Virus record (IMG/VR): IMGVR_UViG_3300025914_000009
Coordinates: 32,001-96,000 of that record
Strand: one strand, 5' to 3'
DNA length: 64,000 bases
Source of the DNA: a virus
Positions 1,475-62,808 of the stretch are shown here, piece by piece. The notes under the pieces are model-generated. The model did no database searches. It was not told where the DNA came from and saw nothing but the letters and a program-made list of their open reading frames with translations. Position numbers and translations under genes: made by a program. Each line of letters begins with the position of its first letter. Position 1 is the first letter of the stretch.

Positions 1475-1986
1475 TAGACATTAACATATTTTGTTCCTGG
1501 AATGAAGTCTCCACTGTTATACTTTTGGAAGAGCTGCTGCCAGGTATTTCCGAATGTTTTCTGTAGGTGAGGATAATCTTTAATGGAAGACCACTTTCCT
1601 CCCCACTCCCAACCAGCTTGTTCAAATACTTTCACTACTTCCAGCCAGTCAGCTACACCATCTCTATCATTATCCTTTTTCATATCCCAGGAGGTCTCAT
1701 CATATACTCCATCTCCATTAGTATCATAAACTAAGCAAAAGTCAATAGCAAGTCCATAATTATGATAGCTGCTCCCCCCACGGGCATTTGTAACAATCTG
1801 TCCTGGTGTAGTTCTCCCTTGAGCATATAGGGCGTTCTGCTCATCTATTGTCCTTAGTCCCTGAGGGACTGCTATAGCAACGGTCTTAGGGAGTGGTGCT
1901 TCTGCTTTTTCGATTAGTGCTTTTACCTCATCTCTCACCTTTGGATGGAGTAGGGCTATCCTAGCTTCTGACTTAGTATGTCTCAT
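1474..1986 (-). CDS. M15-family L-Ala-D-Glu peptidase endolysin (CwlK/Ply500-like)
   Basis: Motifs GLRTIDEQNALYAQGRT, SYHNYGLAIDF, WEWGGKW, DYPHLQ. Confidence 0.92.
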   Translation of the reverse strand: MRHTKSEARIALLHPKVRDEVKALIEKAEAPLPKTVAIAVPQGLRTIDEQNALYAQGRTTPGQIVTNARGGSSYHNYGLAIDFCLVYDTNGDGVYDETSWDMKKDNDRDGVADWLEVVKVFEQAGWEWGGKWSSIKDYPHLQKTFGNTWQQLFQKYNSGDFIPGTKYVNV

Positions 1987-2002
1987 TGGTTATTTTTTAA
2001 AA

Positions 2003-2042
2003 TAAAAAAGGAGAGAGAGCCTTGAATTGCTCTGCTCTCCTT
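2003..2042 (-). terminator. Intrinsic terminator
   Basis: Minus strand AGGAGAGCAGAGC...GCTCTCTCTCCT followed by T-run. Confidence 0.65.
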
Positions 2043-2061
2043 AACTGCCAGGTTCAGATTA

Positions 2062-3219
2062 TTATGGTATTAGGGTTGTAGTAGAAGTGGTTGAAGTTGA
2101 AGTGGTTGAAGTTGTAGTAGTAGTAGTTGGATTAGTTCCACTCACATCAGTTGGTGCTCCAAGTGCTGCAGTAAGGGCAGTTTCGAATGTTCCACCAGTT
2201 CCTGTTGGGAAGGCTACAATTACTGTAGAATCCTGAGGAACTCCAGGGTTCCATGTATTCAGGTATTCATCATAAGGATAGTACTTGATGTAGTAAGTAT
2301 CATAGAACGTACCATCAGTTACATAGCTGGTAAACAGCTGATCCCAAGATGCATACTTGTATTGATGTTTGAACTGATTAACTTGGTAGCTCCATAAGTT
2401 CTTTTCAAGCTGCTTGATTTCTGCAGAAGATCCGGAAGGATAATCTGATCTTTGAACTACTGTAGATGTAGCTACTATATCACAGGCATTGCTTACAATG
2501 AAATCCTGAGTTGTGACAGGCCCTTTGATCACGAAAGCTCTGAACCAGAGTCTGTCGTATTCATAAGGATAAGCTTCGAAGTCACAAGGGTTTCCATAGA
2601 CTGTCAGAGGCTTTTCAGTTATATACAGCTGAGAGCTTGATCCTGTTCCAAATCTTGAGAAGGTCAGGAAGGTAGAAAGTGCAGGGTCTGCATTTCCTTT
2701 TGCAACAGCTGCATCCACAAAATTCTGCAGAGCAGTTCCTGTAACACTACTACAAGGGTTAGCACCACATGAGCAACATGGAGTATCTACCACGAATGAT
2801 CTTGTAAGACCATTGAAGAATCCAGTATCAATATAACTTGAGTGAAGTACGAAGGCAAAGGTGATCTGCTCACTGCATTCAAGAGCCCATGAGCTAACGG
2901 ATTGTACCTGTGTTGGCACGTTTGATACAGCAGTTATTTTGTACCACTCAATAACCTTGGTAGAAGTGATCTTATCAGATCTTTTACTTCCAAGTTGGTT
3001 ACCTACTGTACCAAATCCTACTGCATTATTTGAAGGTAATACTTCGATTCTACCTTGAGCAATGTAGAAGTACTTTGCTGCTGCTATATTACCAGAGGTG
3101 GCAATTGAATAGTCAGGACGAAAAAGCCCAATTTGACCTGGTGTAAGGTCTTGGGTAGATCCTGTGGAAGCCAGAGTTCCTGATGTGGCAACAAACAGCG
3201 TTGTTAATGAGAAATCCAT
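2062..3219 (-). CDS. Putative auxiliary capsid/structural protein with C-terminal Thr/Ser tail
   Basis: 385 aa; third gene downstream of MCP as in crAss-like capsid modules; ends TTTTTTSTTSTSTTSTTTLIP. Confidence 0.6.
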   Translation of the reverse strand: MDFSLTTLFVATSGTLASTGSTQDLTPGQIGLFRPDYSIATSGNIAAAKYFYIAQGRIEVLPSNNAVGFGTVGNQLGSKRSDKITSTKVIEWYKITAVSNVPTQVQSVSSWALECSEQITFAFVLHSSYIDTGFFNGLTRSFVVDTPCCSCGANPCSSVTGTALQNFVDAAVAKGNADPALSTFLTFSRFGTGSSSQLYITEKPLTVYGNPCDFEAYPYEYDRLWFRAFVIKGPVTTQDFIVSNACDIVATSTVVQRSDYPSGSSAEIKQLEKNLWSYQVNQFKHQYKYASWDQLFTSYVTDGTFYDTYYIKYYPYDEYLNTWNPGVPQDSTVIVAFPTGTGGTFETALTAALGAPTDVSGTNPTTTTTTSTTSTSTTSTTTLIP

Positions 3220-3240
3220 TTAGATATAGATTTTACGTGA

Positions 3241-5049: not shown

Positions 5050-6594
5050 TTAGAACTGAGGAACTTCTTCTATAACGACGCAACGTGATAAATCTTCTAT
5101 AAAGACATCGTATCTATCATCCATGAAGATAGTATAACCATCAAACATGTTGGCAGCTGAGTGACCTTGTGATCTCATAGCTCCAAGGTGATGTCTACGC
5201 CCATCAATATATCCCCATGTCATTGAGGGTCTTCCCTTCATTCTTACTTCTCTGATATTGTTTCTCAGAGATCCATCTCCCTCAGGGGAAATGTCAAAGA
5301 CAAGGAATAATGGAGTTGATTTCTTATTCTGACCGAACTCAAGGTTAGATTGAGGTAAATCCAGTTCTTTTAAGTGAACCAGCTCAATTCTACCTGTTTC
5401 ACGAGTTACCATGCTTGAGAAGGCATAGTTTAGTGTTAGTTTCTGTTCAGCACCCTGAATGAATCTTGTATCAGCAATGATAGTAAGACCACTATTGAGA
5501 GCATCATCTTTCAGAGCTTGGTCGAATACATCGAACCCTGCTTCATTAGTGTATATCTTAACTCTTCTTTGTGCTACATCTACACGTCTGTAGAACAGAT
5601 CTCCAAACACAGCACGGAAGATATTAGTTGAGAACTCACCTCTGTTATACTGAACAAGGTTACCATTGTTTCTCATTCTGTAGTAAACTCCAGAAGATAC
5701 TTTCTTAACCTCTTGCTTAGAACCTCTTGTCTTCACGATACCTGGTTTACCCCAGATCATCTTTTGTACTTTCAGATCAAGCATTGCTTTTCTCATCCAG
5801 AACTCAATGAAAGGTTCCCATCTGATATCATGACGAGTAACTGGTTTCTCGTTTCTCTTACCATTGATGTACACCATCAGGTCAAGAGGCATACCATCTT
5901 TGTTCTTGAGCATACGATCATCTGCCCAACCAGTGATAGTATGTTTGTAACCTACAGCTGAACCTAAAGATTCATACATTGTGATCTTTTCAGCCATACG
6001 AGGAAGACCAGGAAGATCTTCATCGAACTCACCAATTGATTGATTTACAAGAGTAAACTCAATACCAGGTTCAAGGAATGTAGGATCAACGAACTCAACT
6101 TTAGGATTGCTCGATACAAGCGTGGCAGTGTAAAGGAATCCCATGTTGTAAGGCTGCGGATCTCTTATGATAGCAAATTGCTGACCATAGATCTTGTGTG
6201 GAGTGATGATCATATTCTGAGTGAACTCAGCTGAATCCATCACGAACTGGAACTCCTGACCATCAATACCTGGAGTGGTAAGATTCAGTGTGCTCGTAGG
6301 AACCTCGATGATCTTAGGGAATTTGTATGGTACTTCTACTTCCCATTGCCATGCATCAGAGTTGGTATCAATGTAGAACGGAGTAGACTTGTTGATCATG
6401 TCCAGGAAGTCATTGGCATACAATGAGCTCTGTGTATAAATGGAGATAATCTTCTTATCATAGTCCGCAGGATCTGTGGTATGGAAAGACTCCAGGTGAT
6501 TTGTGTCTGTGAGCTTACCAATAGCACGTTTGTCCATTGAAGCTACCCTGGCATAGGCAAAACCAGTAAAACCAGGTATTGTTTGTAAAGCCAT
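5050..6594 (-). CDS. Major capsid protein (crAss-like)
   Basis: 514 aa, follows acidic scaffold and portal; size and position typical of crAss-like MCP; followed by a terminator. Confidence 0.85.
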   Translation of the reverse strand: MALQTIPGFTGFAYARVASMDKRAIGKLTDTNHLESFHTTDPADYDKKIISIYTQSSLYANDFLDMINKSTPFYIDTNSDAWQWEVEVPYKFPKIIEVPTSTLNLTTPGIDGQEFQFVMDSAEFTQNMIITPHKIYGQQFAIIRDPQPYNMGFLYTATLVSSNPKVEFVDPTFLEPGIEFTLVNQSIGEFDEDLPGLPRMAEKITMYESLGSAVGYKHTITGWADDRMLKNKDGMPLDLMVYINGKRNEKPVTRHDIRWEPFIEFWMRKAMLDLKVQKMIWGKPGIVKTRGSKQEVKKVSSGVYYRMRNNGNLVQYNRGEFSTNIFRAVFGDLFYRRVDVAQRRVKIYTNEAGFDVFDQALKDDALNSGLTIIADTRFIQGAEQKLTLNYAFSSMVTRETGRIELVHLKELDLPQSNLEFGQNKKSTPLFLVFDISPEGDGSLRNNIREVRMKGRPSMTWGYIDGRRHHLGAMRSQGHSAANMFDGYTIFMDDRYDVFIEDLSRCVVIEEVPQF

Positions 6595-7996: not shown

Positions 7997-8329
7997 TTAG
8001 GATTCATCATCCGATTCGAAAGATTCACCTGTTTCATTATAGACAGGCCAGTCTCCCTCACATAGTCTCATTTCAACAACTGCTTTCTCCCATCTTTCAC
8101 AGAGTTCTTCAAAGGATTCAGCTACCAGGATCTTCTCTCCATCATACATCTGGACTATGCTCTTAGTAGAAGTATATCCAATTACCTTATATATTTCCCC
8201 TACCGGAAGGGCCATTGCTCTCCATACCCATTGTTTGGACTTAGCAATGATGCCCATATCCATTTCCTCCAGCTCCATGTCTTCCTCCGAGACAAGCTTT
8301 ACCTTGGCTTTCAGTTTTAATAGACTCAT
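7997..8329 (-). CDS. Hypothetical protein
   Basis: 110 aa ORF coupled to portal stop. Confidence 0.6.
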   Translation of the reverse strand: MSLLKLKAKVKLVSEEDMELEEMDMGIIAKSKQWVWRAMALPVGEIYKVIGYTSTKSIVQMYDGEKILVAESFEELCERWEKAVVEMRLCEGDWPVYNETGESFESDDES

Positions 8330-10917
8330 TATTTAGATTTTGATTTCTTTGCCTGGGCCTTCTTAGCCTTGATATCCATTCTCTTCATCTGGAGCTGAGC
8401 TTGGATTTTCTCCTTATCTAGCGCGATCTTTCTGAGCTCCATCGCAATATAATCATTCGACTCTTTGGCCTTCTGCTGGATTTGAGATAGTTTAAGTTGG
8501 TATTCCCTATCCTTACCAATGCTTTCTTGTGTAAGTCTATTAGCTTCTGCGATATCTTCATCTCCTGCATTTTCAATTGGGTTCATTGCACTTCTTTCTT
8601 TGGCTGCTGCTGCTATTAGAGCAATCTCCTTCTTATTAAGTCTATCCAGCTCATTTTGCCCGGCTTCAAATTCTTTATCTAATTGATCCTGGATGGCTGC
8701 CTGTTCCTGCTCATGCTGGAACATAGCTTGCTGCTGCTGTTGATCCTGTTGCTTAAGCTGTTGTTCTTGTTGCTGCATTGCTTCCATTTTCTCCTTTAAG
8801 GACTTGAATACTTGCTTCATTGTCCTGATAGAGTTGGTAGTATATAGTACAGATATTTCATATGGAGTAGCTCCATTCTGTAGCATTGGTTGAGCAAGCT
8901 GTCTGAGATCTTCAAAGGCTTTTTGATCCTGGGCTCTGGTAGTAACAAATACCTGTAGATCCCTAAGGGTGATGTCTTCAGAGTTAACTCTAATGAAGGC
9001 TTGTTCTCCTTCTGTATTGATATAGGAAATGGTTGACTCTGGTTTCTTTACTTCTATATGCTGAACTGCATCCAGAATAGCTTGATATACATCATTTAAT
9101 ACATACTCATGTTGTGCAAAGTATGGTTCTGTCTGAGCATAGGATTGAGATAAGGCAGTATTTGTACCTGTAGCAGTTTGAGTTGCAGCTACTCCACCTG
9201 TTCTTTCTCTGGTAATACCTACCAGTTCCCATGCTTCCTGTTTAAGCTGCATAGCCAGAGTGTATCTGCTTTGGATTTCAGCAGTCCTTGTCCAGTCTAT
9301 ATTCTTAAACATGTTGAAGTTAGATGGACTCTTCAGGTTTTCAGGAGAGTCATCTACTATAACAACCCCTCTTTTTCTGGCCTCCTGCTCCCAGATATCC
9401 AGTGCATCCTGAGCATCCCCATCCTTAGGGATAGGAATGTGCCTCATAGACATAAGGTACACATTACCAATTTCCTTCTCCAGCAGCTTATAGAGCTGGT
9501 TCATACATACATTGTACAGAATCTGATAAGGTTTTAGTAGGTCAATTAAGCTCTTAGCTTCATTTATGTTCTTGATCTCATGAACTACTCCAATAATAGG
9601 GCAGTAGTTCAGAAGTTCAAAGGGCTCCACATTATATACATCAGATCCAATCTTGTAGCCTTTATACCATTGGTTTATATAGTTCCACTCGATTGATACC
9701 TGGTTTGGTACTCTCTTATAAGACTCATCTACTAAAGTGGTCTGTTCTACTCCCTCTTCGTCCTTAAATATCAGTCTCCCCACTTTCTTTTTTGAGCACC
9801 AATAGGCTTGAACTACTACATACTTATTACCAAAAGTATTTACATTGGATGATAAGCCAAGAAAGTCATTAAGAGGATCCACGTTCTCTTTGAGCATTGA
9901 CTCAACCAGAAGTCTTTGTTGTACTATAAATGGGGAATAAGTATCATATTTGATTGATTCCCATCCACTTACGTTAGGATTCTCAAAGTTCGATTCCCTT
10001 GGGGAGAATAGAGAGAGTTCTCTTACACCTTTTCTTAAGTGATCAATCTCTTTCTTATCCAGATCAAATCTCTCAATAATCTCACTAAGCTCCATTACAT
10101 GCACTGTCCCTGCAGCAAAGGCATCTTTAAGATACTTCTTATCAGGAAGAGTCAAGAACCATACATTCTTTGGGTTTAGATTTTCTACTCCTACCCCCAG
10201 CTTTGAGTTAGTCTCATATATGTGATAGAACTCTCTTGAGCAGATTAAAAGATCTCTAAAGCAATCTTCTGAGATCTCCTTCATGTTCATCTGCATCTTC
10301 ATGGCTTCCAAAACATGATTTCCCCATTTCTCTGCAGTAGAAGTATAGTCAGTCAGATACTCTGATACCTTCTCCATTGTAAGTTGTTCCAGATCCTGAT
10401 CATTAGAAGGACTGCCTTGTCCTTGTACTCCTGACTGAACAGCAATCTTAGACTTAGCTTGTTCCATTATGAATTGCTGTAATATCTCAGTCTTGAATTG
10501 AAGCTCCTCATTTTTTGAATCATCATCAAAAGCCTTAACCCTAGCTACATCTGGTCTTCTTGTAAGCTCTCCTAACATGGTATTCATAGGAGGGTTTAAG
10601 ATAGGATAGTGCTTCACATAGTTAGGGAGTTCTACATCTCTTACTACTGTATCTGCAAAGGATCTAAGTTCAGGATCATCTGTATCATTAATATAGAAAT
10701 CCTGTGGTCTGAGAATCCCCTTTACCAGGTTATAGTTATTTACAAAGGTATCTTTACCTTTAATAAATTGAGAGTAGGCCACATTGGCAAAGTAGTCCAT
10801 ATTGGACTTTATCCAGTCATCTGTTCCTTTCTCTGCTTCTGGTACGAACTGATCAGGATAAATGTTCCACCTTGCCCAGTCAAGGTTCTGATCCTTTGAG
10901 TGAATGATTATAGGCAT
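8329..10917 (-). CDS. Portal protein
   Basis: 862 aa directly after terminase, Gln-rich coiled-coil C-terminus typical of podovirus/crAss portals. Confidence 0.85.
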   Translation of the reverse strand: MPIIIHSKDQNLDWARWNIYPDQFVPEAEKGTDDWIKSNMDYFANVAYSQFIKGKDTFVNNYNLVKGILRPQDFYINDTDDPELRSFADTVVRDVELPNYVKHYPILNPPMNTMLGELTRRPDVARVKAFDDDSKNEELQFKTEILQQFIMEQAKSKIAVQSGVQGQGSPSNDQDLEQLTMEKVSEYLTDYTSTAEKWGNHVLEAMKMQMNMKEISEDCFRDLLICSREFYHIYETNSKLGVGVENLNPKNVWFLTLPDKKYLKDAFAAGTVHVMELSEIIERFDLDKKEIDHLRKGVRELSLFSPRESNFENPNVSGWESIKYDTYSPFIVQQRLLVESMLKENVDPLNDFLGLSSNVNTFGNKYVVVQAYWCSKKKVGRLIFKDEEGVEQTTLVDESYKRVPNQVSIEWNYINQWYKGYKIGSDVYNVEPFELLNYCPIIGVVHEIKNINEAKSLIDLLKPYQILYNVCMNQLYKLLEKEIGNVYLMSMRHIPIPKDGDAQDALDIWEQEARKRGVVIVDDSPENLKSPSNFNMFKNIDWTRTAEIQSRYTLAMQLKQEAWELVGITRERTGGVAATQTATGTNTALSQSYAQTEPYFAQHEYVLNDVYQAILDAVQHIEVKKPESTISYINTEGEQAFIRVNSEDITLRDLQVFVTTRAQDQKAFEDLRQLAQPMLQNGATPYEISVLYTTNSIRTMKQVFKSLKEKMEAMQQQEQQLKQQDQQQQQAMFQHEQEQAAIQDQLDKEFEAGQNELDRLNKKEIALIAAAAKERSAMNPIENAGDEDIAEANRLTQESIGKDREYQLKLSQIQQKAKESNDYIAMELRKIALDKEKIQAQLQMKRMDIKAKKAQAKKSKSK

Positions 10918-10920
10918 CTG

Positions 10921-13017
10921 TTATATAAATAATTTTGATCTTCTTCTACCATTATTATATCTGATTGGAGAAGAGTTTGAGAAGTCGATTACTTTGTTTG
11001 TGCTTTTTTGTCCCTTGAAGTAAGCTTCAAATCTGGGATCTTTCTTTTCTGTGGATACTACGAACTGTGGATTAAGATGATCCGCCAGGGCAATGGCCAG
11101 CTCCGCAGCTACTATACGGTCATAGTTCCCTTCCTCTGAGTTGAAGTTAATAATTTCTTCCAAGAGCATAGGATCAAATACTCTGGTTACTCCCAGGGTC
11201 TCTATATTCTTCTCCTCTTCTCTGAAGATGACATCATCCAGATAAGATTTAAGTAGACCATCCAGGTGGTTCCTGATCCTATCACTCGATCTATGAATAC
11301 CATAATCCCTTCTAACTGAGGTATTTGGAACTATTTCTCTAAGCCAGCTCGGTTGAGGGGCCAGGTATCTTGCAGCTTCTCCTTTCTTGAGCATATAATC
11401 TATAAAGCTATACTCATCATTTTCACAAAGGGTATAGGCATTATAGTACTTAATGAGGAGTCTGGCAGTCTCATTCCACTTGTCTTTACTATCTGGCCTG
11501 GCTACATAAGAAGCTACAAATAGGTTTTGATATCTATCCGAGGCAATGTCATGTACCCTTTTAAAGATATACACTGCCCCAAGGGAGTCTGAATATTCAG
11601 ATCTACTCTGTCTATAAGGGTCAACTCCAGCTGTATAGAGTCCGAATGGTGGTTCATCATCTATTGGGAACTCCCAAATGACTGGAGGAGCATCAAGTGA
11701 AGTTGTGCTATCTGCAGGAAACTTGCTGATTGGTAGTTTATCACTGAACTTATGGCAAATCTTTTCTCCATCATGATATAAGTCTACCGGAGTACCAGTC
11801 TTCCCAAGGGCAGTAAGTCTATTCTTTTGAGCTTTAGCAGCTTCGATATTAAAGTCATTCTTTGTAAGAACCAGGAAGCTATCAGATGGAACCAGAGGCC
11901 AGAAGGCTTTGAACTTCAATACAGTCTTCTGATTACCAGATTTTATAGCTCTTGCATATTCTTTTTCCCACCACTCCCTAGCCTTCTCATAGTTGGTTAC
12001 CAGAATGGTAATTCTTTCTAAGTCAGGGTGTTGTATTCCCAAATAATCAGATAGCTTCATTGGATCCTTGTACTTGATCTTAGCCATTAAGGCATCAATG
12101 AATCTACCCATCTTTGTTCCTGGTATTTCAGGATTATCAAAGGGGAGTATGTTATAGGCTTCAGGGTGAAGGAACACTTCAGATGCCTCTTTACCTTTTT
12201 CCATATCACCCCCAGTGCCTGCTATCATAGCAAGACAGGAAGGTTTATCTTCTTTGGATGTACCAGACCACCAGGCACCTTCAGAGTCTTTGAAACAGGC
12301 AATGAAGTTTCTAATGGTACCAATTTCATCTATAAGATGGAAACCAGGTCTAGCTCCTACTGCTGCATCGCTCTTTGATCCTTCTTCAAAGTTTCTTATC
12401 TGTATAGATGATTGAGAAGATAAAGGAGATGTTATCCCTGTCTTCTTATCTTTCCAACCAGCCTTTATTTCTTTTTTCCAGTCATTAACAATCCTTTGCT
12501 TCTGCAGGATTGGATGTAGATTGATCAGACCATCTTCTACCTTATCAGTAGCAAGCTTGATATATGTACCATTACCTGCACTGATGATAGCTTCTGATTT
12601 GTCAAAGAGAGTGTACTGATAACCAGCTCTTGAGCCAGCCATGATAGATTTCCCGAAGTCACGAGATCCAACCAGGGCATAGAACTTACCTTTCTGTTCA
12701 CATTGAGTAAAGTCATCAGCTATTATCCACTCAATGTCCCTGAGATAGGGAGTATCAATAATTCTGATCTTCTTATTAAGTCTTTCATTTTCAATGTACA
12801 TGGCGATTTTCCAGTACACTGTGTGCCAATAGAGCCATCCAGAAATGTATACTTTCCCATCTGCCAGATAAAAGCCTTCCTTCATCCTACGCTTTTCTTC
12901 AGTCCAGTACTCCCTAAAGGTTTCCATAGCTGCTTCATCTGTAGGATCGTAAATAGGTTCTACCTGGTCGGGGAACCAAATGTTTTTAGTTTTCTGGGTA
13001 TACTTCTGGTCTATCAT
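10921..13017 (-). CDS. terL: Terminase large subunit
   Basis: Walker A-like GSRDFGKS, Walker B LIDEIG, GTGG coupling motif, nuclease GVDPY and YDRIVA. Confidence 0.92.
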   Translation of the reverse strand: MIDQKYTQKTKNIWFPDQVEPIYDPTDEAAMETFREYWTEEKRRMKEGFYLADGKVYISGWLYWHTVYWKIAMYIENERLNKKIRIIDTPYLRDIEWIIADDFTQCEQKGKFYALVGSRDFGKSIMAGSRAGYQYTLFDKSEAIISAGNGTYIKLATDKVEDGLINLHPILQKQRIVNDWKKEIKAGWKDKKTGITSPLSSQSSIQIRNFEEGSKSDAAVGARPGFHLIDEIGTIRNFIACFKDSEGAWWSGTSKEDKPSCLAMIAGTGGDMEKGKEASEVFLHPEAYNILPFDNPEIPGTKMGRFIDALMAKIKYKDPMKLSDYLGIQHPDLERITILVTNYEKAREWWEKEYARAIKSGNQKTVLKFKAFWPLVPSDSFLVLTKNDFNIEAAKAQKNRLTALGKTGTPVDLYHDGEKICHKFSDKLPISKFPADSTTSLDAPPVIWEFPIDDEPPFGLYTAGVDPYRQSRSEYSDSLGAVYIFKRVHDIASDRYQNLFVASYVARPDSKDKWNETARLLIKYYNAYTLCENDEYSFIDYMLKKGEAARYLAPQPSWLREIVPNTSVRRDYGIHRSSDRIRNHLDGLLKSYLDDVIFREEEKNIETLGVTRVFDPMLLEEIINFNSEEGNYDRIVAAELAIALADHLNPQFVVSTEKKDPRFEAYFKGQKSTNKVIDFSNSSPIRYNNGRRRSKLFI

Positions 13018-14988: not shown

Positions 14989-15098
14989 GTAGCTTGGTTT
15001 TCTTTTACAAAGTTATGGGCTTTTTTGGAAGTAATATATAACTCTTTGGGATGTAATGCTATAAAAAGCAAAAATCCTCCCAATATGAGAGGATCTTG

Positions 15099-15170: not shown

Positions 15171-15173
15171 TTA

Positions 15174-54444: not shown

Positions 54445-55527
54445 ATGAGTGATTTTGATGACTTAGCAGGAGAAGTTCAGAGTGGCATGGATGGTGCCAA
54501 TGCTGGTGTACCAATGGGGTTTCAGAGGCTGAACAATCACATAAGTATCAGAAAATCAACTAAGTATTTAATAGGAGGCTACACTGGTAGTGGCAAAACT
54601 GCTCTACTGGATGATGCCTTTGTGTTAAATCCACTAGATTGGTACATTAGGAATTATAGTACTACGAGAATAAGACTGAAGTTAGTTTACTTTTCTATGG
54701 AGAGAAGAAAGAACTTCAAGTTGGCTAAGTGGATTTCCAGAAAGATATTCATGGATCATGGAGTACTTATTCCTGTGACCAGGTTAATGGGTTGGTGCCC
54801 AAGGGATCAGAGGCTAACTCCTGATGAGCATGATCTGTTCCTAATGCACAGAGAGTATATTGAGGCTCTTATGGAAGTGATTATCATGATGGATTACCCA
54901 GAGAATCCCACAGGGATAAGGAAGTACATGAGGGAATTATATCTGAGGCACGGTAGGGAGGAACAGGTTACAGAGCATAAAAGGATATATATACCAAATG
55001 ATCCTAATTTGATTATCATGAAGATCAAAGATCACTCTGGTCTGATAAAGAAAGAGAGTGGTCTTGCTACTAAAAAAGATGTGATAGATAAAGCATCTGA
55101 AGATGATCGAATGGAAAGGGATTATTATGGGGGTTCTATAGTAGAGGTTTCTCAGTTCAATAGAGATATCTCAAGTCCCCTAAGGCTCAAATCAGGTGAT
55201 GTAGAGCCAATGCTTGAGGATTTTAAGGACACTGGAGCTACTCAGGAGGATTCAGATGTGGTTTTATCACTATTTGATCCTATGAGATATAAGGTTCCAG
55301 ACCCCTCAGGGTATGATCTATCCTTACTCCGCTCCAGAGATGGAATGAAGATGTATAGATCCTTAAAAATCCTGAAGAATTCCTATGGCTCAGATGATAT
55401 TAGGATAGGTCTTGCATTCCAACCTGTTGTAGGCATGTTTAAGGAAATGCCAAAGATAGGAGATATGACTCCAGAAGTCTATGAAACTATTTTGAACAAT
55501 ACGTTCTTTTTACCAGAAAACAGATAA
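54445..55527 (+). CDS. DnaB-like replicative helicase
   Basis: GGYTGSGKT, YFSME, SQFNR, EDFKDTG, ILKN. Confidence 0.88.
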   Translation: MSDFDDLAGEVQSGMDGANAGVPMGFQRLNNHISIRKSTKYLIGGYTGSGKTALLDDAFVLNPLDWYIRNYSTTRIRLKLVYFSMERRKNFKLAKWISRKIFMDHGVLIPVTRLMGWCPRDQRLTPDEHDLFLMHREYIEALMEVIIMMDYPENPTGIRKYMRELYLRHGREEQVTEHKRIYIPNDPNLIIMKIKDHSGLIKKESGLATKKDVIDKASEDDRMERDYYGGSIVEVSQFNRDISSPLRLKSGDVEPMLEDFKDTGATQEDSDVVLSLFDPMRYKVPDPSGYDLSLLRSRDGMKMYRSLKILKNSYGSDDIRIGLAFQPVVGMFKEMPKIGDMTPEVYETILNNTFFLPENR

Positions 55528-55528: not shown

Positions 55529-56377
55529 ATGATTAAAACCATCAATTTGAACACAGGAGAGGGATATACTAAAACCGTATTCCCTGATTCTCAGCCTCAT
55601 ATTCACGTAGATGTAGCTTTGGAAGAGTACCTGGCCAGAGTAATAGTGTCTCTGGACTCCCCAGCAAAACTTCTTGAGCTATGTATGATATCTAGTGCTT
55701 TAGATCATCATAAGACTATCTCAAAGAGTGAGCTCCACATTACCTACTTATTGGGTGCCAGATCTGATAGAAATCATGATCTTCCCTTAGGGAGCAGCTT
55801 TGGTCTGAAAGTGATAGCAGATATCATTAATTCCCTTGAGTTCTTGGATGTATATCTCTATGATCCTCATTCAGATGTAGCCCCTGCTTTAATCAAAGGT
55901 TCAATTGTGGTTAATAATAGGGAGCTGGTGGAGGCTTATGATAAAAAGGATACAATTCTTATTGTTCCTGATGCAGGTGCTTCCAAAAAGGCACACAAAT
56001 ATGCTGAGTGGAATCCAAATATTAAAGAATCCATACAGTGTATAAAGCATAGAGACCTTTCTAATGGTAAAATAACTCTTGAAGTTCTTAACCCTGCAAC
56101 ATGTGCTGGGAGGCATTGTGTGATTATTGATGATATCTGTGATGGGGGTGGAACTTTCATTGCTATTGCTAAGCAGCTTAGAGATCAGGGATGGAATCCT
56201 CTTTCTATGACTCTCATAGTTACTCATGGGATTTTCTCCAAAGGATTTGAGCCACTGGAAGAGTATTTTGATGAGATAATATGCTCAGACTCACTAGGAG
56301 TATGGATACATACAGGTAAAGTCAAAATAAAACAAATAGCTTATGACCCAGACAAATATGGAATTAATGCAGGATGA
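55529..56377 (+). CDS. PRPP synthetase-like protein (Prs/Adps)
   Basis: FPDSQ, YLLGARSDR, DPHS, PDAGA, IIDDICDGGGTF, THGIFS. Confidence 0.9.
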   Translation: MIKTINLNTGEGYTKTVFPDSQPHIHVDVALEEYLARVIVSLDSPAKLLELCMISSALDHHKTISKSELHITYLLGARSDRNHDLPLGSSFGLKVIADIINSLEFLDVYLYDPHSDVAPALIKGSIVVNNRELVEAYDKKDTILIVPDAGASKKAHKYAEWNPNIKESIQCIKHRDLSNGKITLEVLNPATCAGRHCVIIDDICDGGGTFIAIAKQLRDQGWNPLSMTLIVTHGIFSKGFEPLEEYFDEIICSDSLGVWIHTGKVKIKQIAYDPDKYGINAG

Positions 56378-57056: not shown

Positions 57057-57551
57057 ATGAAAGTAGTACAGGCACCACAAAGAGCAGACTGGTACATACC
57101 AGTCAGTATATTTTTGGCAGGATCAATTGAGATGGGACTAGCATCAGGATGGCAGGAAGAGGCAATTGAGTTATTTGAGAAATTCATTCCAAAGAAGCTG
57201 AACAATAAGTATCAGATTCTCAATCCCCGAAGGGATGACTGGGACAATAGTTGGGATAACTCTTTTGAAGATCCAACATTTAGTCAGCAGGTAAACTGGG
57301 AGCTCAGAGGTCTTGAGAAGGCTGATATGAGACTCTTCTATTTTGATCCAGGAACAATCTCTCCCATCAGCCTACTTGAGTTAGGTAGATATGGATTCAG
57401 TGGAACGGTTGTAGTATGCCCTGAGGGGTATGAAAGGAAGGGAAATGTAGATATCTTCTGTGACAGAATGAGCATTATGCAAAAGGATACGCTTGAAGAA
57501 GCAGCAAAGTACATAATTAAACAAACTAAAAGCAGGGCAAGTTATGGGTAA
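57057..57551 (+). CDS. Nucleoside 2-deoxyribosyltransferase-like protein
   Basis: IFLAGSIEMG, NPRR, QVNWE, SPISLLELG. Confidence 0.85.
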   Translation: MKVVQAPQRADWYIPVSIFLAGSIEMGLASGWQEEAIELFEKFIPKKLNNKYQILNPRRDDWDNSWDNSFEDPTFSQQVNWELRGLEKADMRLFYFDPGTISPISLLELGRYGFSGTVVVCPEGYERKGNVDIFCDRMSIMQKDTLEEAAKYIIKQTKSRASYG

Positions 57552-57845: not shown

Positions 57846-59411
57846 ATGAAAATCAATCCACTGAATCTGATAGATTTCTATAAGGCTGATCACAGGAGAC
57901 AATATCCTAAGGATACTACTCTTGTTTTCTCCAATTTTACTCCACGGAAGAGCAGAATCCCTGGTGTTGATCATGTAGTATTCTTTGGTTTACAATACTT
58001 TATCAAAGAATATCTGATCAAACAGTGGAATGAAAACTTCTTCCAAAAACCACTAGATGATGTTGTTAAGTCTTTCAACCGTCGCAAGGATAGTTCACTT
58101 GGGCCCAATTCCATTGGTAGTGATCATATTGTTGCTCTTCATGAACTGGGGTATCTCCCTTTACAAATTATGGCTCTACCTGAAGGCTCGAAAGTCCCAA
58201 TCAGAGTACCCCCTCTTATAATGTGGAATACCAGACCTGAGTTCTTCTGGTTGGTAAACTATCTAGAAACCTGTATGTCAGCCTCTTTATGGCAAGGTTC
58301 TACCTCTGCTACACTGGCTGCTGAATATAGGAAATTGCTCAATAGCTGGGCTCTTAAGACTGGTAGCCCTAAACAGATCAATGAGTTTGTGCAGTGGCAA
58401 GGCCATGACTTCTCCTTTAGAGGCATGAGCAGTATTGAATCTGCAGCAATCTCAGGAGCAGGACATCTTTTATCTTTCACAGGTACTGATACTGTCCCAG
58501 CCATAGATTTCCTTGAAGAGTACTACAATGCAGATGCAGATAGTGAGCTCATAGGTGGTTCTGTACCAGCAACCGAGCACTCTGTAATGTGTATGGGTAT
58601 GCAGGGAGGCGAGTTTGAGACATTTAAGAGACTTATTACTGAAATATACCCCTCAGGGATAGTGAGTATAGTCTCCGACACATGGGATCTCTGGACAGTT
58701 CTAACTGATTATTTACCAAGGCTTAAGGATGTAATTCTGGCAAGAGAAGGTAAGGTGGTTATCAGACCTGATTCAGGTGATCCTGTGGATATTATCTGTG
58801 GACTTCCTCCAGATTCAGCCAGTCTCCTAGGGAATGGTAAATGGCTACATACATACAAAGGTGGTGTAAAAGAGGGGAGTCCTCAACAGAAAGGTGTAAT
58901 AGAACTCCTCTGGGACATCTTCGGAGGTAAAATCAATGAAAATGGATACAAAGAGCTTGACTCTCATATTGGCGCTATCTATGGGGATTCCATTAATTTG
59001 GATCGGGCTAACTCAATTTGTCAAAGATTGGAAGCTAAGGGCTTTGCTTCAACTAATATTGTTCTGGGTATCGGTAGTTATACTTATCAGTATAATACTC
59101 GTGATACACAAGGCTGGGCTATGAAAGCTACCTATGGGGAGCTTCTCCCAACACCTTATCATAATGTCCCTGTAGAAAGAGAGATCTTTAAGGATCCAAT
59201 AACTGATGATGGAACTAAGAAGTCTGCTAAAGGTCTTATAGCTGTATATAAAGTATATGATGATCCAGAGTCAGATAATTATAGCTATCACATGACTGAT
59301 CAGGCTACTTGGGATATGGTAAAAAATTGTGCTCTTAAGCCAGTCTTTATAGACGGAAAACTGATGATAGATGATAGTCTTGCTAATATTCGGGCAAGAG
59401 TAGCAATGTAA
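57846..59411 (+). CDS. Nicotinamide phosphoribosyltransferase-like protein (NAMPT/Namat)
   Basis: DFYKADH, HDFSFRG, PATEHSVMC, SIVSDTWD, IRPDSGDP, YGDSI, KKSAKG. Confidence 0.93.
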   Translation: MKINPLNLIDFYKADHRRQYPKDTTLVFSNFTPRKSRIPGVDHVVFFGLQYFIKEYLIKQWNENFFQKPLDDVVKSFNRRKDSSLGPNSIGSDHIVALHELGYLPLQIMALPEGSKVPIRVPPLIMWNTRPEFFWLVNYLETCMSASLWQGSTSATLAAEYRKLLNSWALKTGSPKQINEFVQWQGHDFSFRGMSSIESAAISGAGHLLSFTGTDTVPAIDFLEEYYNADADSELIGGSVPATEHSVMCMGMQGGEFETFKRLITEIYPSGIVSIVSDTWDLWTVLTDYLPRLKDVILAREGKVVIRPDSGDPVDIICGLPPDSASLLGNGKWLHTYKGGVKEGSPQQKGVIELLWDIFGGKINENGYKELDSHIGAIYGDSINLDRANSICQRLEAKGFASTNIVLGIGSYTYQYNTRDTQGWAMKATYGELLPTPYHNVPVEREIFKDPITDDGTKKSAKGLIAVYKVYDDPESDNYSYHMTDQATWDMVKNCALKPVFIDGKLMIDDSLANIRARVAM

Positions 59412-59440: not shown

Positions 59441-60286
59441 ATGTTCAAATTACTAAGAAGAGTAGCTAACCCAATAGTAGCTATTACTAAATCTGACGCT
59501 GCGATAGTTCGTGAAATTCACGATGATTTTGAAACAGCTTCTCAGAAAGCCTTAAATGAGGCTAAAAAGATCCTTGAGAGTTTGAATAATGCAGATGCTA
59601 AAGCTCAGGTAGATGCTTTAAAATCTGCAGGGTTTAATAATGTCCCTATAGTAAAGCAATGGCACGCAGAGGACTTGAAAAGGGCTGAGGCTGAGAAGAG
59701 AATTGCTGCTGTGGAAAAATATGCCATAAAATATCCTGGTCAGAAGTTCATCTTTATAGATCAGGTTAAGGCTATTTGCCAAAAGTACGGTCTTCTATGT
59801 GTTCCTGCATATAAATACAAAGGAGATGTTCCTCAAAAGAACATCTTGGAAATCAGCAAGTTCAAGGCTCTTCCAGAAGATACTTATCTGGAACAAACTA
59901 ATCGCTTTAGTGACAGAGTAGAGTTCGACTTTACTAAGAGGCACAACTTTGTTGATAGCAAACAAGCTCAAAAGATGAGAGATGATGTCAACCGTAGAAA
60001 CTCTTATCTACTGAATGACCAGAGCTTATGGCCTACTGGAACGGCTTTGCCTAGCTACCCTTCCTATACCTCTATGCCAACATTCACCTCAGTCCCATTA
60101 TTTATCTGTGCCCCTAAGGGAGATTTGATAGTGGATGATAATGACAAAGTGCACAATGGGGTCTTTATGAGTAGGGAGATCAAAGATCCTATTGTCCTGC
60201 ACTATGTGGGTGATGGTTTCCTGATTGTCTCTAAATGGGGCCCTGAGGCTGAAGATAAAGATCTCGTGAATGAAAATATGAACTAA
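59441..60286 (+). CDS. Hypothetical protein
   Basis: 281 aa ORF ending DPIVLHYVGDGFLIVSKWG. Confidence 0.7.
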   Translation: MFKLLRRVANPIVAITKSDAAIVREIHDDFETASQKALNEAKKILESLNNADAKAQVDALKSAGFNNVPIVKQWHAEDLKRAEAEKRIAAVEKYAIKYPGQKFIFIDQVKAICQKYGLLCVPAYKYKGDVPQKNILEISKFKALPEDTYLEQTNRFSDRVEFDFTKRHNFVDSKQAQKMRDDVNRRNSYLLNDQSLWPTGTALPSYPSYTSMPTFTSVPLFICAPKGDLIVDDNDKVHNGVFMSREIKDPIVLHYVGDGFLIVSKWGPEAEDKDLVNENMN

Positions 60287-60690
60287 TGGGACTATTGGAA
60301 GCTCAGATAAAAGCTGCCTTGGCTATTCAAAGGACTGAGGCAGCTCTTTCAGAAGCAAGAGGTAATCTAGCTACGCATTTCCCTGCTGAAAGTAGAGAAC
60401 ATATGGATGCCTTTCTTGCCTATATAGATTCTCTAATCAGTATTTCCATATCCCTAGGGAGGGTAAAAGAACTTCACGAAAACTGCCTAAAAGATGACCA
60501 AAGAAACACGCAAAAAGAGGGCTGAAATCCTCGAAAAGATTAGGAAATCTGAGGAAAAAGAGGTAAATTTGATACCTTTTTCACCTCAATCTTCTAACCA
60601 ATTCTTTCTGGGTTTCAAACTTAATAGTGACAAGGTAAATCAAATGTGGAGATGGGATACCCTCGAAGATGTTAAATTGTAAATTCATAT

Positions 60691-61386
60691 ATGGCTAACA
60701 AAACTATCAGAGATTATCACAAGATTTGCTTGGTAAGCCCCCCAGGGAAGGGTAAGACTTTCAGCTTTAGGAACATGAGTGAATCTACTACAGGATTTGT
60801 GAATGCTGAGAATAAACCTTTGCCTATTGAGAGAACTTTCAAACACTATGCAAAGCCAAAGAAGTTTGCAGGAGCTTTAAAAGCTATTGAGGATTATGCA
60901 AAGAATCCAGAAATAGACTGCATAGTAGTAGATAGCATGTCTGAAATATTTAACATGTTACTTGAAGAGATGAGAGTTAACTTTAGGGGATTTGATGTAT
61001 GGGATAATTATAATAGAGGTATTAGTAAACTTATGAACTTGGTCAAATCTGTGGAAAAGGAAATGTTCCTCACTGCTCACTATGAAGTGATAAACATTGA
61101 GGGAGAACCTGAGAAAAGGATTAAGACTAAAGGTAAAGAGTGGGAAGGCATGATCGAGAAAGAGTTTACCATTGTCCTGTATGCTGATAGTAAGTTTGAA
61201 AATGATAAACCAAAGTACTTCTTCAAACTGGCTGCTGAAGGTACAAGCGCTAAGTGCCCTCCAGGGGTGTTTGGTACTGATGTGTTCAAAATACCTAATG
61301 ATAGCAATGAAGTTCTGAAGAAAGTAGTCGAATTTGCAAAGAAGTCTGAGAGACAAGTAACTGATACAGAAGCTTTATTTAATTAA
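60691..61386 (+). CDS. AAA-family ATPase (Sak4/AAA_24-like)
   Basis: SPPGKGKT, IVVDS, TAH. Confidence 0.8.
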   Translation: MANKTIRDYHKICLVSPPGKGKTFSFRNMSESTTGFVNAENKPLPIERTFKHYAKPKKFAGALKAIEDYAKNPEIDCIVVDSMSEIFNMLLEEMRVNFRGFDVWDNYNRGISKLMNLVKSVEKEMFLTAHYEVINIEGEPEKRIKTKGKEWEGMIEKEFTIVLYADSKFENDKPKYFFKLAAEGTSAKCPPGVFGTDVFKIPNDSNEVLKKVVEFAKKSERQVTDTEALFN

Positions 61387-61399
61387 TAAAAAGTAATAT

Positions 61400-62233
61400 A
61401 TGAGTAAGATCTTCGAAAAACTTTTAGAAGACTTCAAGAAAGCTAATTTGGCTGCTAAGGAAAAACTGGCAGCCAAATATGGCTTTTCTAGCACTAGTGA
61501 ATATCTTAAATATCTGGAATCCCAGATTGCTGTAGATACAGCACTAGTTGAGGTGAAGACTACTACACCTAAAACAAAAAAGAAAACCAAGGTAGTAGAA
61601 CGTATCACCGTACATAATGTACATATCCTTGATGCCTCAGGGAGTATGTCAGGCCCCAAGTTTAATGCAGCCCTCACAGGTATAAATAAGGAAGTAGAAG
61701 AGATGAGAAAGGATAACTCTACTGACGTTACCCAAACTGTGGTACATTTCTCCGATCCTTATGATATCCAGACAGCTTTCTGGAAGACTCCTCTAGGGAA
61801 AGTAGGAACCTTTCATGCTGTGACAAGGGGTTCTACTGCACTCCTGCAGACTGTAGGTGAAACACTTACAAAGCTTCTCTCCGAGGCTAATGGTAAGGAT
61901 AAAGTTCTAGTGAAGATCTTCACAGATGGTCAGGAGAACTCTACAGCAATGAACTCGCCATGGAGAAGCACTAAAGCAGTAGCAGATCTCATCAAAGAAT
62001 GCGAGGCTAAAGGTTTCACTATTACCTTTGTTGGTACAGAGGAAGATGTAGCTTACGTCATAAGACTATTATCTGTTGACAAAACCAATACCCTTTCTCA
62101 TAAAAACACTGCAGAAAGCATTGGTGCTACTTATATGATGTCTACTGTGGCAACTGCTAAGTTCAGAAGTTCTGCTTCTCGCGGGGAAGATGTGAGCCGT
62201 GGATTCTATAGTAAGGAAACTGGTACATTATAA
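61400..62233 (+). CDS. vWA domain protein
   Basis: LDASGSM, GSTAL, FTDGQEN. Confidence 0.85.
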   Translation: MSKIFEKLLEDFKKANLAAKEKLAAKYGFSSTSEYLKYLESQIAVDTALVEVKTTTPKTKKKTKVVERITVHNVHILDASGSMSGPKFNAALTGINKEVEEMRKDNSTDVTQTVVHFSDPYDIQTAFWKTPLGKVGTFHAVTRGSTALLQTVGETLTKLLSEANGKDKVLVKIFTDGQENSTAMNSPWRSTKAVADLIKECEAKGFTITFVGTEEDVAYVIRLLSVDKTNTLSHKNTAESIGATYMMSTVATAKFRSSASRGEDVSRGFYSKETGTL

Positions 62234-62244
62234 ACTACACACAT

Positions 62245-62808
62245 ATGACAAAATTCAGAGATCTAAAAGTTGGTGAGAAACTGAGCGAAACTCAGTACTA
62301 TTCAGTGGTTAAGATTGTGGGAGATAAGGTACAATTGAAAGCAGACAATGGAGAGGATATAGTTCTTAATAAAGGCTATGTAGAAAATCTCCTGACTTCC
62401 TCAACTCAGTTCGAAAGAGAGGAAGCCATAACTAAAACAGACGCAGCAGCCCTATTTCTGGCTTCCCCAGGGGTTGTTATGACTGTTAATTTTAACACTC
62501 AGGTTAAGGAAAAAGATGCCATCGAGCAATTAAGAGACATCTATCCTAACAAAGGTGGGAAAATGACCAGTGAGGCAGATTATACAAAGAAAGTAAAAGA
62601 GATCATCTCTTCTGTAATCACTGGTAAAGAGAGAACAATGGTAGGAAGACACTATGGTTCTCAGAATGAGTTTGGAAGAGTTAGCTTCATTGATATGGAA
62701 GTTGATAAAGATCCTTCCAAACCTGACTATGATTCCAGAACAAGACAGGTTGACCCCCGCACAATTAACTGGATGATCATAAGAAGTGTTAAGTATAAAA
62801 TAAAGTAA
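62245..62808 (+). CDS. Hypothetical protein
   Basis: 187 aa ORF. Confidence 0.7.
   Translation: MTKFRDLKVGEKLSETQYYSVVKIVGDKVQLKADNGEDIVLNKGYVENLLTSSTQFEREEAITKTDAAALFLASPGVVMTVNFNTQVKEKDAIEQLRDIYPNKGGKMTSEADYTKKVKEIISSVITGKERTMVGRHYGSQNEFGRVSFIDMEVDKDPSKPDYDSRTRQVDPRTINWMIIRSVKYKIK

Follow-up and report, generated by a model that had tools for sequence, protein, structure and literature searches.

The stretch of DNA analyzed here (the window, 64,000 nucleotides) comprises bases 32001-96000 of the 124,983-bp virus record IMGVR_UViG_3300025914_000009 from IMG/VR, the whole genome being referred to as G000. A nine-base palindrome, CCCYNRGGG, is iterated throughout this DNA and is the subject of the present work. 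By similarity and gene order G000, which has a GC content of 39% in window and genome, is a crAss-like phage that is syntenic with Leptolyngbya phage Lbo-JY46. PHROG matches mark the genes for the major head protein, the portal, the large terminase, the DNA polymerase and a NAMPT-like enzyme (Table 1), and the genome carries its own RecA and DnaB-like helicase. The portal is 24-26% identical to those of crAss-like phages; its top match, with 30%, is that of Lbo-JY46, a 125-kb cyanophage with the same layout as G000 past the terminase gene. The window contains 23 tRNA genes, 21 of them in one cluster, and the run His-Gln-Phe-Thr-Pro ... Leu-Leu ... Ile-Met-Asp ... Gly-Met-Asn-Arg has the identical order in G000 and Lbo-JY46. 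Thus an uncultured soil phage group is tied to a cultured cyanophage. No close match to the window was found at the DNA level in the phage collection searched; among sequencing runs, it was matched by Logan contigs of rhizosphere and soil metagenomes, with no RNA data set among them, and the full stretch occurs only in two rhizosphere metagenome assemblies, which may be its source.

Relatives were collected from IMG/VR with a terminase search. G001 (126 kb, complete) has a terminase 86% identical to that of G000 and is collinear with it at about 75% DNA identity over 97 kb; the two assemblies are circular permutations of one another. The same search yielded G002 (37 kb) and two more distant contigs, G003 and G004, the latter being identical over 39.7 kb to the 73.8-kb contig G415, which extends it. 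Five larger relatives (G410-G414) were added, two of which are complete; G410, G412 and G413 are complete or nearly so. With a profile search the set of terminase-related loci came to 52.

CCCYNRGGG reads the same on both strands, and six to eight of its nine positions are G or C. The window holds 49 matches at 46 distinct places, three pairs of matches overlapping each other. The initial annotation had counted about 45 copies by eye, roughly one per 1.4 kb, and all 13 coordinates that it gave as examples were confirmed. Its estimate of fewer than one expected copy holds under a mononucleotide model (about 0.9, from the base counts of the window) but is too low for dinucleotide-preserving shuffles of the window (n=100), which contained 2.80 sites on average (standard deviation 1.51, largest 7); none of the 100 shuffles reached 49. 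In the whole genome there are 98 sites in 124,983 bp, i. e. 0.78 per kb or about one per 1.3 kb, and every 10-kb bin is occupied by 3 to 12 of them. Because maximal-order Markov word statistics are uninformative for a degenerate motif, whose sub-words absorb the signal, dyad statistics were used instead. With 139 occurrences versus 12.2 expected from triplet counts (z about 36), CCC-N3-GGG is the top of all triplet pairs at gaps of 0-5. The enrichment of the palindrome is about 17-fold over dinucleotide shuffles, more than 10-fold over the codon-preserving null described below and up to about 30 times overall.

The motif is sharply delimited. In the window CCC-N3-GGG occurs 69 times and the inverse GGG-N3-CCC eight times; in the genome the inverse form is at background level (16 versus 12.2 expected). 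The centres of the 69 window copies are YNR in 49, RNR in 10, YNY in 7 and RNY in 3 cases, and among the 139 copies in the genome 98 are YNR, 37 are half-correct (YNY or RNR) and 4 are RNY, the RNY centres amounting to 1.2 times the shuffle mean. YNR is thus the majority, although the spacer is not almost always Y-N-R as had been stated (49/69, or 71%, in the window). An apparent excess at gaps of 2 and 4 arises where the C or G tracts of this 9-bp frame are longer. Single-base variants of the arms reach 0-2.3 times the shuffle mean; measured with the same inflated null, the full motif reaches 4.4 times. Position 2 tolerates change least (variants at 0.5, 0.91 and 0 times the shuffle mean). 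The C-to-T variants are the commonest one-off words and are not depleted (TCC 1.85, CCT 2.29 and CTC 0.91 times the shuffle value); hence a Vsr-type signature was not seen among the one-off variants. The base preceding each half-site is a pyrimidine in 78% of cases (T 45%, C 33%), and the same holds in G001. This gives the full word Y-CCC-Y-N-R-GGG-R. An extended repeat could be dismissed, as the flanks are conserved no further than Y at position -1 and R at +1. The symmetric half-sites Y-CCC-Y and R-GGG-R form an interrupted palindrome of a kind suited to a homodimeric enzyme.

The sites are largely indifferent to the reading frame. Open reading frames (ORFs) were called mechanically (ATG starts only, greedy non-overlap), which gave 141 ORFs covering 86% of the genome. 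The sites fall into frames 0, 1 and 2 in 21, 34 and 27 cases, and 16 are intergenic or partly so. The structural, early/middle and right arms all carry 0.66-0.70 sites per kb, independent of gene length and of position within the gene, and the sense-strand forms of each centre are about equally common. The occurrence in coding and non-coding DNA on both arms, noted at the outset, is thus borne out. A comparison with codon-preserving shuffles had been proposed as a check. When synonymous codons were shuffled within each gene (300 shuffles), 22.1 +/- 2.6 sites remained (maximum 31) versus 98 observed. Since 16 of these roughly 22 are intergenic and cannot be moved by the shuffle, the coding comparison is 82 observed sites versus about 6 movable ones.

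How the sites are spelled can be followed at conserved peptides. CCC is a rare proline codon in G000 (172 of 1511), and 27 of these CCC codons lie inside sites. The peptide SLGA of the terminase is encoded by TCCCTTGGGGCA, TCCCTGGGGGCA and TCCCTAGGGGCA in G000, G001 and G002, respectively, and by TCATTAGGTGCT and TCCTTGGGAGCT in the motif-poor relatives G004 and G003. For SLGA, for SPEG of the major head protein and for SPRE of the portal, the motif-spelling codons occur only in the motif-bearing genomes. As judged from these alignments, the motif is written by codon choice at conserved peptides.

The palindrome is confined to a narrow lineage. G000, G001 and G002 contain 98, 104 and 23 copies (a reversed control pattern has none in G001 and G002), the two close relatives having the same density as G000; G003 and G004 contain one each, and G410-G414 none or one. 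Among the 52 terminase-related loci only three show an excess (L001, L002 and L099), all with at least 83% identity; relatives with a terminase identity of 63% or less have none. Within the lineage, the sites are conserved beyond background. In the 97-kb alignment of G000 and G001, 43 sites are common, 31 are found in G001 only and 24 in G000 only, so that 58-64% are kept (a second mapping of the sites gave 45, 27 and 30). The corresponding control retention is 18.7% for 91,591 9-mers of the same shape and 15.5% for 232 non-motif SSSNNNSSS 9-mers. The centre changed and still reads YNR in 22 of the 43 common sites.

The sites are also more evenly spaced than random ones, as was found when the spacing analysis suggested by the initial annotation was carried out. 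The 91 merged sites of G000 have a coefficient of variation (CV) of spacing of 0.735 versus 0.98 +/- 0.10 for random placement (P 0.0014), and only one gap is shorter than 150 bp versus 9.3 expected. In G001 the CV is 0.70, and none of 5000 random sets was as low. The mean spacing is 1.3-1.4 kb, with few very short and very long gaps. Together with the two contigs described next, four contigs are under-dispersed, with CVs of 0.68-0.74.

G004, whose terminase is 63% identical to that of G000, has an evenly spaced 9-bp palindrome of its own, TCTCNGAGA, built as TCTC-N-GAGA. It occurs 33 times in G004 versus 1.4 expected and two to three times in the other genomes. CTCNGAG is found 56 times in the 52 kb of G004 versus 4 times for GAGNCTC, with a spacing CV of 0.71. 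The extended contig G415 contains 46 copies of TCTCNGAGA (reversed control 1) and 70 of CTCNGAG versus 7 of GAGNCTC (CV 0.68). Both palindromes have the same build, namely four pyrimidines, N and four purines, and both have C as their second base. Of 37 G000 sites that could be aligned, 4 correspond to a CTCNGAG in the orthologous codons of G415, as compared with a control rate of 0.89%; one example is the portal peptide SPRE, encoded by TCCCCAAGGGAA in G000 and by TCTCCGAGAGAG in G004. This coincidence may reflect common opportunities at Leu-Arg and Pro-Arg, or old sites at which the word has changed. The two lineages differ in composition (GC 0.39 and CpG 0.24 in G000; GC 0.43 and CpG 0.67 in G004/G415). 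On the contig strand of G004 (L144-L146; L176-L179 in G415) the centre of (T)CTCNGAG(A) is strand-biased, with 37 CTCTGAG versus 11 CTCAGAG; on the sense strand of the structural genes of this lineage CTCAGAG occurs 19 times versus 3 for CTCTGAG, whereas the centres of the G000 motif are balanced. In G003 (L147-L150), a relative without a GC-rich palindrome, TATTAATA occurs 45 times versus 10.9 expected and is possibly a promoter-like word.

CCCYNRGGG is a real and sharply defined motif that operates at the DNA level, is lineage-specific and is selected for its presence and for roughly even coverage of the genome. What it is for can be stated less firmly. We give an even chance to the interpretation that it is a selected, lineage-specific site for a dimeric, sequence-specific protein that acts on the whole phage DNA. 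The two half-sites CCCY and RGGG would be read on double-stranded DNA by a homodimeric sequence-specific protein, with which the symmetric half-sites and the symmetric degeneracy fit. This reader could simply bind the DNA or could act on it, for instance by modifying or nicking it, and could be encoded by the phage or supplied by the host. It would require that no point of the phage DNA lie farther than roughly one kilobase from a site; a site every 1.3 kb, with short and long gaps trimmed, fits a process that reaches every part of the genome. The sites might thereby form a genome-wide mark for protection, for the choice of the strand to be repaired or for compaction. Chi, uptake sequences and the cyanobacterial palindrome HIP1 have a distribution of this kind. 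The specificity of the reader would have moved between lineages, from one of the words CCCYNRGGG and TCTC-N-GAGA to the other, and such a switch between sister lineages fits an evolving specificity as in restriction-modification enzymes or repressor-operator pairs. Of the roles that the initial annotation had listed for an iterated protein site, a binding or modification protein is favoured by the specificity, frame independence, conservation and spacing of the sites and by the sister palindrome. Packaging and recombination have no specific support, since the ends of alignment blocks do not coincide with sites.

Phage genomes are known to avoid short palindromes. In a more specific and more tentative version of the proposal, the palindrome could be a "self barcode": a lineage-specific word of 9-11 bp, placed about every kilobase by codon choice and read by a cognate phage protein, by which the phage might tell its own DNA from that of the host or of competitors. 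The barcode might serve protection, selective replication, transcription or packaging, and a change of word from one lineage to another (CCCY-N-RGGG to TCTC-N-GAGA), sometimes at the same codons, would go hand in hand with a change of reader.

Several observations weigh against a selected site with a protein reader. Local compensation of lost and gained sites was not detected (P 0.16-0.47), there being no more than a trend within 200 bp (5 versus 3.0, P 0.16), so that the argument for stabilising selection on spacing comes solely from the spacing distribution. Sites are not in excess at the ends of G000/G001 alignment blocks (7 versus 10.8 within 100 bp). No other iterated palindrome was found in the complete or nearly complete relatives G410, G412 and G413, which means that the function is dispensable in the clade. 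No reader has come to light in the phage: a six-frame search of its genome gave no match to PF00145, PF01555, PF02086 or PF02583, and hence no methyltransferase of the cytosine-5, N6/N4 or Dam type and no CsoR-family protein, and a Pfam scan of 92 early/middle ORFs and further listed ORFs gave no DNA methyltransferase, Vsr or restriction family. The only methyltransferase-like ORF, g132, looks from its motifs and from a source name like a cation-dependent O-methyltransferase of the YrrM/COMT type, not a DNA methyltransferase; of 80 other phage loci that encode homologues of it, 76 were scanned, and such a palindrome was seen in none of these (longer repeats were flagged in three). Finally, the conservation of sites could also come from a repair drive that restores decayed sites.

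Such a neutral molecular drive is the main rival, though in our estimation a rather unlikely one. Sequence-specific short-patch mismatch repair, either of the Vsr/Dcm type or methylation-dependent as Elhai 2015 (PMC4390886) proposes for HIP1, a highly iterated palindrome (HIP) of cyanobacteria, would convert near-cognate words into sites that have no function. Gain and loss of sites are indeed frequent, with 55 lineage-specific versus 43 common sites at a total near 100 per genome, and retention above background and the lack of local compensatory turnover are what a drive predicts as well. The density of about 0.8 per kb is also near the 1-2 per kb given for HIP sequences by Elhai (PMC4390886). 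Yet the C-to-T one-offs that a Vsr-type repair should remove are the commonest one-offs, and a drive predicts Poisson-distributed or clustered sites, not the under-dispersed spacing of four contigs. These two findings weaken it. Neither a cytosine nor any other DNA methyltransferase family was found in the phage, and the genome of the host should be loaded with sites too, which is the case for none of the 401 genomes sampled from the Bacteroidota, the only phylum sampled. Unlikely, too, is a host signal read by a translocating enzyme, as Chi is by RecBCD/AddAB. The palindrome would then tell the enzyme from either side to stop degrading or to load RecA, would protect linear or permuted DNA, and the sister word would belong to another host. 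Density and even spacing fit such a coverage function, a palindrome acting both ways is apt where genome ends vary from one assembly to the next, RecA is encoded by the phage itself, and the differing composition of the G000 and G004/G415 lineages is as expected for different hosts. Known Chi sequences, however, are asymmetric and orientation-biased, whereas this motif is palindromic with balanced sense-strand centres, and it is degenerate in a symmetric manner (Y at 4 and -1, R at 6 and +1), as is typical of sites bound by a dimer on duplex DNA. Moreover, no enrichment on the scale of a host genome was seen in the 401 Bacteroidota genomes, in which the top counts simply go with a GC content of 63-69%, and the sites are not linked to the ends of recombination blocks.

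The remaining explanations fare worse. It is very improbable that the motif marks replication initiation sites at which a primase-helicase of the phage starts Okazaki fragments, the palindrome offering the same template word on both strands. Okazaki fragments of bacteria and phages cover the range of 1.3-1.4 kb in which the mean spacing lies, few gaps are extreme, and a DnaB-like helicase and a DNA polymerase are encoded by the phage itself. Against this, the known primases recognize three to five bases of a single strand, for which a palindrome is not required; separate sites on the two strands would do equally well, yet half-motifs are barely enriched, and relatives with homologous replication genes have no such motif at all. 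A hairpin of RNA or single-stranded DNA that acts as a processing, pausing or termination signal is close to refuted. The word is self-complementary and a few copies have complementary flanks (e. g. 1854-1872, dG -4.7 kcal/mol), but the bare 9-mer as DNA folds with a free energy (dG) of only -0.2 kcal/mol, and complementarity at positions 1-6 outside the motif (20-31 of 98 versus 25.7 expected) is at chance. No other stem covaries, as CCC/GGG is the only one of all triplet pairs to be enriched. The sites do not lie at gene ends, and 82 of 98 are inside ORFs, so that the features of a hairpin-type repeat (REP-like or terminator) are missing. That the motif is a by-product of protein sequence, codon usage or base composition is refuted. 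Many sites do lie on Pro/Leu-Arg/Gly peptides, but the synonymous shuffle, the use of all three frames and of intergenic DNA, the concentration of the rare CCC codon in sites and the encoding of the same peptides without the motif in relatives all contradict it.

We return to the candidates for a protein reader. The HU-like and winged helix-turn-helix (wHTH) proteins proposed by the initial annotation could not be tied to the motif. The match of the HU/IHF-like ORF to PF00216 (E 7.7e-4) does not reach the curated cut-off, and its matches to IHF chains are weak (E 0.02-0.2); for the wHTH ORF no Pfam family was found at E<=0.01 and no PDB chain at E<=1. Homologues of the latter exist in all five motif-poor relatives tested (G003, G004, G410, G412 and G413), those of the HU/IHF-like ORF in G003, G004 and partly in G410, with none in G412 or G413. 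The presence of these two ORFs therefore does not explain a lineage-specific motif. The HU/IHF-like ORF diverges faster than its neighbours, with 61% identity to G001 and 30% to G004 as compared with 84-90% and 40-60% for the flanking ORFs.

A subtractive comparison gave 51 ORFs limited to G000 and G001 and, among these, six that were also found in G415 and went undetected in G410, G412 and G413. One is g132 (G000 112331-113059, minus strand), which is similar to the S-adenosylmethionine-dependent methyltransferases of PF13578, occurs in both palindrome-bearing lineages, is absent from the three palindrome-free genomes and matches PHROGs labelled DNA methyltransferase. A PDB sequence search with it gave no matches, and many contigs of about 125 kb encode homologues. 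As an O-methyltransferase-like protein that is widespread without palindromes, g132 is not supported as the reader. The other candidates were set aside: g137 is, by its sequence, probably a membrane protein, g113 (241 aa) gave an unusable structure model (pLDDT 37.7) and no Atlas lead, and the remaining ORFs are tiny or partial without a Pfam match. Among unrelated IMG/VR loci with an O-methyltransferase-like gene, GTTC-N5-GAAC occurs 24 times versus 1.4 expected in L241, GATC-N5-GATC 40 times versus 0.35 in L232 and GTAC-N5-GTAC 8 times versus 0.39 in L246. Since equally strong non-palindromic dyads accompany each of them, these dyads are probably parts of longer repeat units.

The motif was also sought on the side of the host. 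None of 401 evenly sampled Bacteroidota genomes comes near the density in the phage; the maximum was 407 sites in 5.9 Mb, most counts were close to the reversed control, and the five sampled genomes with the highest counts or ratios either have a GC content of 63-69% or are unenriched. No enrichment was seen in the five genomes with the best RecA matches. RecA of the phage shares about 50% identity with its counterparts in many phyla, mostly from Chitinophagaceae and Bacteroidales, and is thus no decisive pointer to the host.

The coordinates of the sites and genes in the window are listed in Table 1.

Table 1. Sites matching CCCYNRGGG, and genes named in the text, with positions in the window (a dot marks a site listed without strand)
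Position	Strand	Feature	Context	Basis
1859..1867	.	site CCCTGAGGG		pattern match
5050..6594	minus	major head protein gene		PHROG match
5279..5287	.	site CCCTCAGGG	in major head protein gene	pattern match
8329..10917	minus	portal gene		PHROG match
8961..8969	.	site CCCTAAGGG	in portal gene	pattern match
9996..10004	.	site CCCTTGGGG	in portal gene; peptide SPRE; CTCCGAG at that peptide in G004/G415	
10921..13017	minus	large terminase gene		PHROG match
11577..11585	.	site CCCCAAGGG	in large terminase gene; peptide SLGA; other centre in G001, G002	
13476..13484	.	site CCCCCAGGG		pattern match
14051..14059	.	site CCCCAAGGG		pattern match
14274..14648	minus	HU/IHF-like ORF		
14629..14988		wHTH ORF of the initial annotation		
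15098..18268		cluster of 21 tRNA genes		
16009..16017	.	site CCCCGAGGG	tRNA cluster region	pattern match
16849..16857	.	site CCCTAAGGG	within tRNA-Met gene 16844-16918	pattern match
17248..17257	.	two overlapping sites CCCCCAGGGG	starts 17248/9	pattern match
18499..18507	.	site CCCCTGGGG		pattern match
19224..19232	.	site CCCTTGGGG	between arms	pattern match
19626..19634	.	site CCCTTAGGG	between arms	pattern match
21472..21480	.	site CCCTGAGGG		pattern match
21968..21976	.	site CCCCAAGGG		pattern match
23683..23691	.	site CCCCGGGGG		pattern match
24066..24074	.	site CCCTGAGGG		pattern match
24444..24452	.	site CCCTTAGGG		pattern match
26453..26461	.	site CCCTAAGGG		pattern match
27591		tRNA gene		
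28857..28865	.	site CCCCAAGGG		pattern match
30971..30979	.	site CCCTCAGGG		pattern match
31176..31184	.	site CCCTGAGGG		pattern match
32028..32036	.	site CCCTGAGGG		pattern match
33117..33125	.	site CCCCAAGGG		pattern match
35241..35249	.	site CCCTTGGGG		pattern match
35497..35506	.	two overlapping sites CCCCTGGGGG	starts 35497/8	pattern match
37069..37077	.	site CCCTTGGGG		pattern match
37905..37913	.	site CCCTCAGGG		pattern match
40092..40100	.	site CCCCAAGGG		pattern match
41506..41514	.	site CCCCGAGGG		pattern match
42025..42033	.	site CCCCAAGGG		pattern match
43214..43222	.	site CCCTAAGGG		pattern match
44009		tRNA gene		
45010..45018	.	site CCCCCAGGG		pattern match
45424..45432	.	site CCCTTGGGG		pattern match
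46865..46873	.	site CCCCAGGGG		pattern match
47100..47108	.	site CCCTAAGGG		pattern match
47749..47757	.	site CCCTTGGGG		pattern match
49256..51268		DNA polymerase gene		PHROG match
49398..49406	.	site CCCTAAGGG	in DNA polymerase gene	pattern match
52556..52565	.	two overlapping sites CCCCCGGGGG	starts 52556/7	pattern match
55303..55311	.	site CCCTCAGGG		pattern match
55784..55792	.	site CCCTTAGGG		pattern match
57419..57427	.	site CCCTGAGGG		pattern match
57846..59411		NAMPT-like enzyme gene		PHROG match
58650..58658	.	site CCCTCAGGG	in NAMPT-like gene	pattern match
60112..60120	.	site CCCTAAGGG		pattern match
60739..60747	.	site CCCCCAGGG		pattern match
62465..62473	.	site CCCCAGGGG		pattern match

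Apart from the palindrome, positions 56343-59411 of the window, nearby DNA and L007 (genome 96001-116000) are dense in genes of nucleotide and NAD metabolism and of the anti-defence type. NAD salvage could be provided by NAMPT-like, PRPP-synthetase-like and cytidylyltransferase-like ORFs, a possible link to the NAD reconstitution of phages. On the nucleotide side there are a MazZ-like dGTP diphosphohydrolase N-domain and a nucleoside 2-deoxyribosyltransferase-like ORF; others are ThiF, cREC_REC, the Acb2/Tad1 hairpin domain, NADAR, R2K ATP-grasp and a Ro/TROVE-like vWA protein. Whether G000 DNA contains a modified base is a question prompted by the MazZ-like, deoxyribosyltransferase-like and O-methyltransferase-like genes.

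The DNA of this group is also strongly depleted in CpG, with a CG odds ratio of 0.24 in G000, G001 and L002, 0.21 in L003 and 0.02 in L101. The ratio is below 0.55 in most of the 52 related loci (among them L003 and L097-L129) and 0.67 in L004. As L003 is CpG-poor and yet motif-free, this depletion is separable from the palindrome. The avoidance of classical palindromes differs between the close relatives G000 and G001: GAATTC occurs 8 times in G000 versus 53 times in G001 and GGATCC 15 versus 37 times, whereas GGTACC (6 versus 10) and GCTAGC (1 versus 1) are scarce in both. The frequency of CTAG in G000 is 0.42 of that expected. This unlike avoidance suggests different restriction pressures on G000 and G001 despite their common iterated palindrome.

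A literature search, whose coverage excluded most subscription journals, found no description of such a motif in phages, but several known systems share some of its properties. That a palindrome of a C-tract, a short spacer and a G-tract can be a specific protein target is illustrated by the CsoR family, for which PMC5057107 gives the operators ATACCCCnnnGGGGTAT and TATACCCnnnnnGGGTATA. As described there, however, CsoR boxes are single promoter operators with ATA/TAT flanks, whereas CCCYNRGGG has about 100 dispersed copies with Y/R flanks, and no CsoR-family gene (PF02583) was found in the phage.

The targets of Type II restriction-modification systems include interrupted palindromes of the type CCTNAGG. 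They resemble CCCYNRGGG as palindromes of 7-9 bp with a degenerate Y/R centre of the homodimer type, and their specificity, too, varies between close lineages. Yet phages normally avoid such targets, and G000 itself avoids GAATTC, GGATCC, GGTACC and GCTAGC, while CCCYNRGGG is enriched about 17-30 times and no methyltransferase or nuclease partner was identified.

Chi and the uptake signal and DNA uptake sequences (USS/DUS) are likewise short words that occur genome-wide, coding DNA included, at about one per 1-5 kb and serve machines that move along DNA or import it; uptake sequences have been reported to be evenly spaced. CCCYNRGGG shares with a DNA uptake sequence the density of about one per kilobase, the even spacing and the presence in coding DNA. 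But all of these words are asymmetric and belong to host chromosomes, DNA uptake sequences being 9-12-mers of competent hosts, whereas CCCYNRGGG is palindromic and none of the 401 sampled Bacteroidota genomes is enriched in it.

Among described phenomena, the HIP class of cyanobacteria comes closest. This class comprises HIP1, GCGATCGC, and alternate highly iterated palindromes, with unlike palindromes in unlike lineages and, in the genome that carries them, a DNA methyltransferase whose specificity matches (Elhai 2015, PMC4390886), and is characterized by abundance and site conservation without a gene-level function (Xu, Lawrence and Durand 2018, PMC5861425). There are differences. CCCYNRGGG is found in a phage genome instead of a bacterial chromosome, is of odd length with a degenerate centre and has no GATC/CGATCG core (GCGATCGC and CGATCG are both absent from G000), and the genome that carries it yielded no cognate DNA methyltransferase. 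In the examined half of Lbo-JY46 neither HIP1 nor CCCYNRGGG nor any iterated palindrome was present. Being phage-borne, without the GATC core and without an identified methyltransferase, CCCYNRGGG is therefore not a strict member of the class. The likeness is nevertheless broad: both are short, GC-rich palindromes, tens-fold over-represented (about 17-fold over dinucleotide shuffles in the phage) at about one per kilobase, in all frames and between genes, with site conservation beyond background (58-64% versus 15.5-18.7% here) and with different palindromes in different lineages. If the reader is encoded by the host, the motif would be a strong host-linkage signal for an uncultured phage group; if it is encoded by the phage, viruses would have a genome-wide cis/trans system of a new kind. 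In either case the HIP puzzle becomes approachable in a 125-kb system of about 140 genes, in which the sites can be recoded and the reader is open to pull-down.

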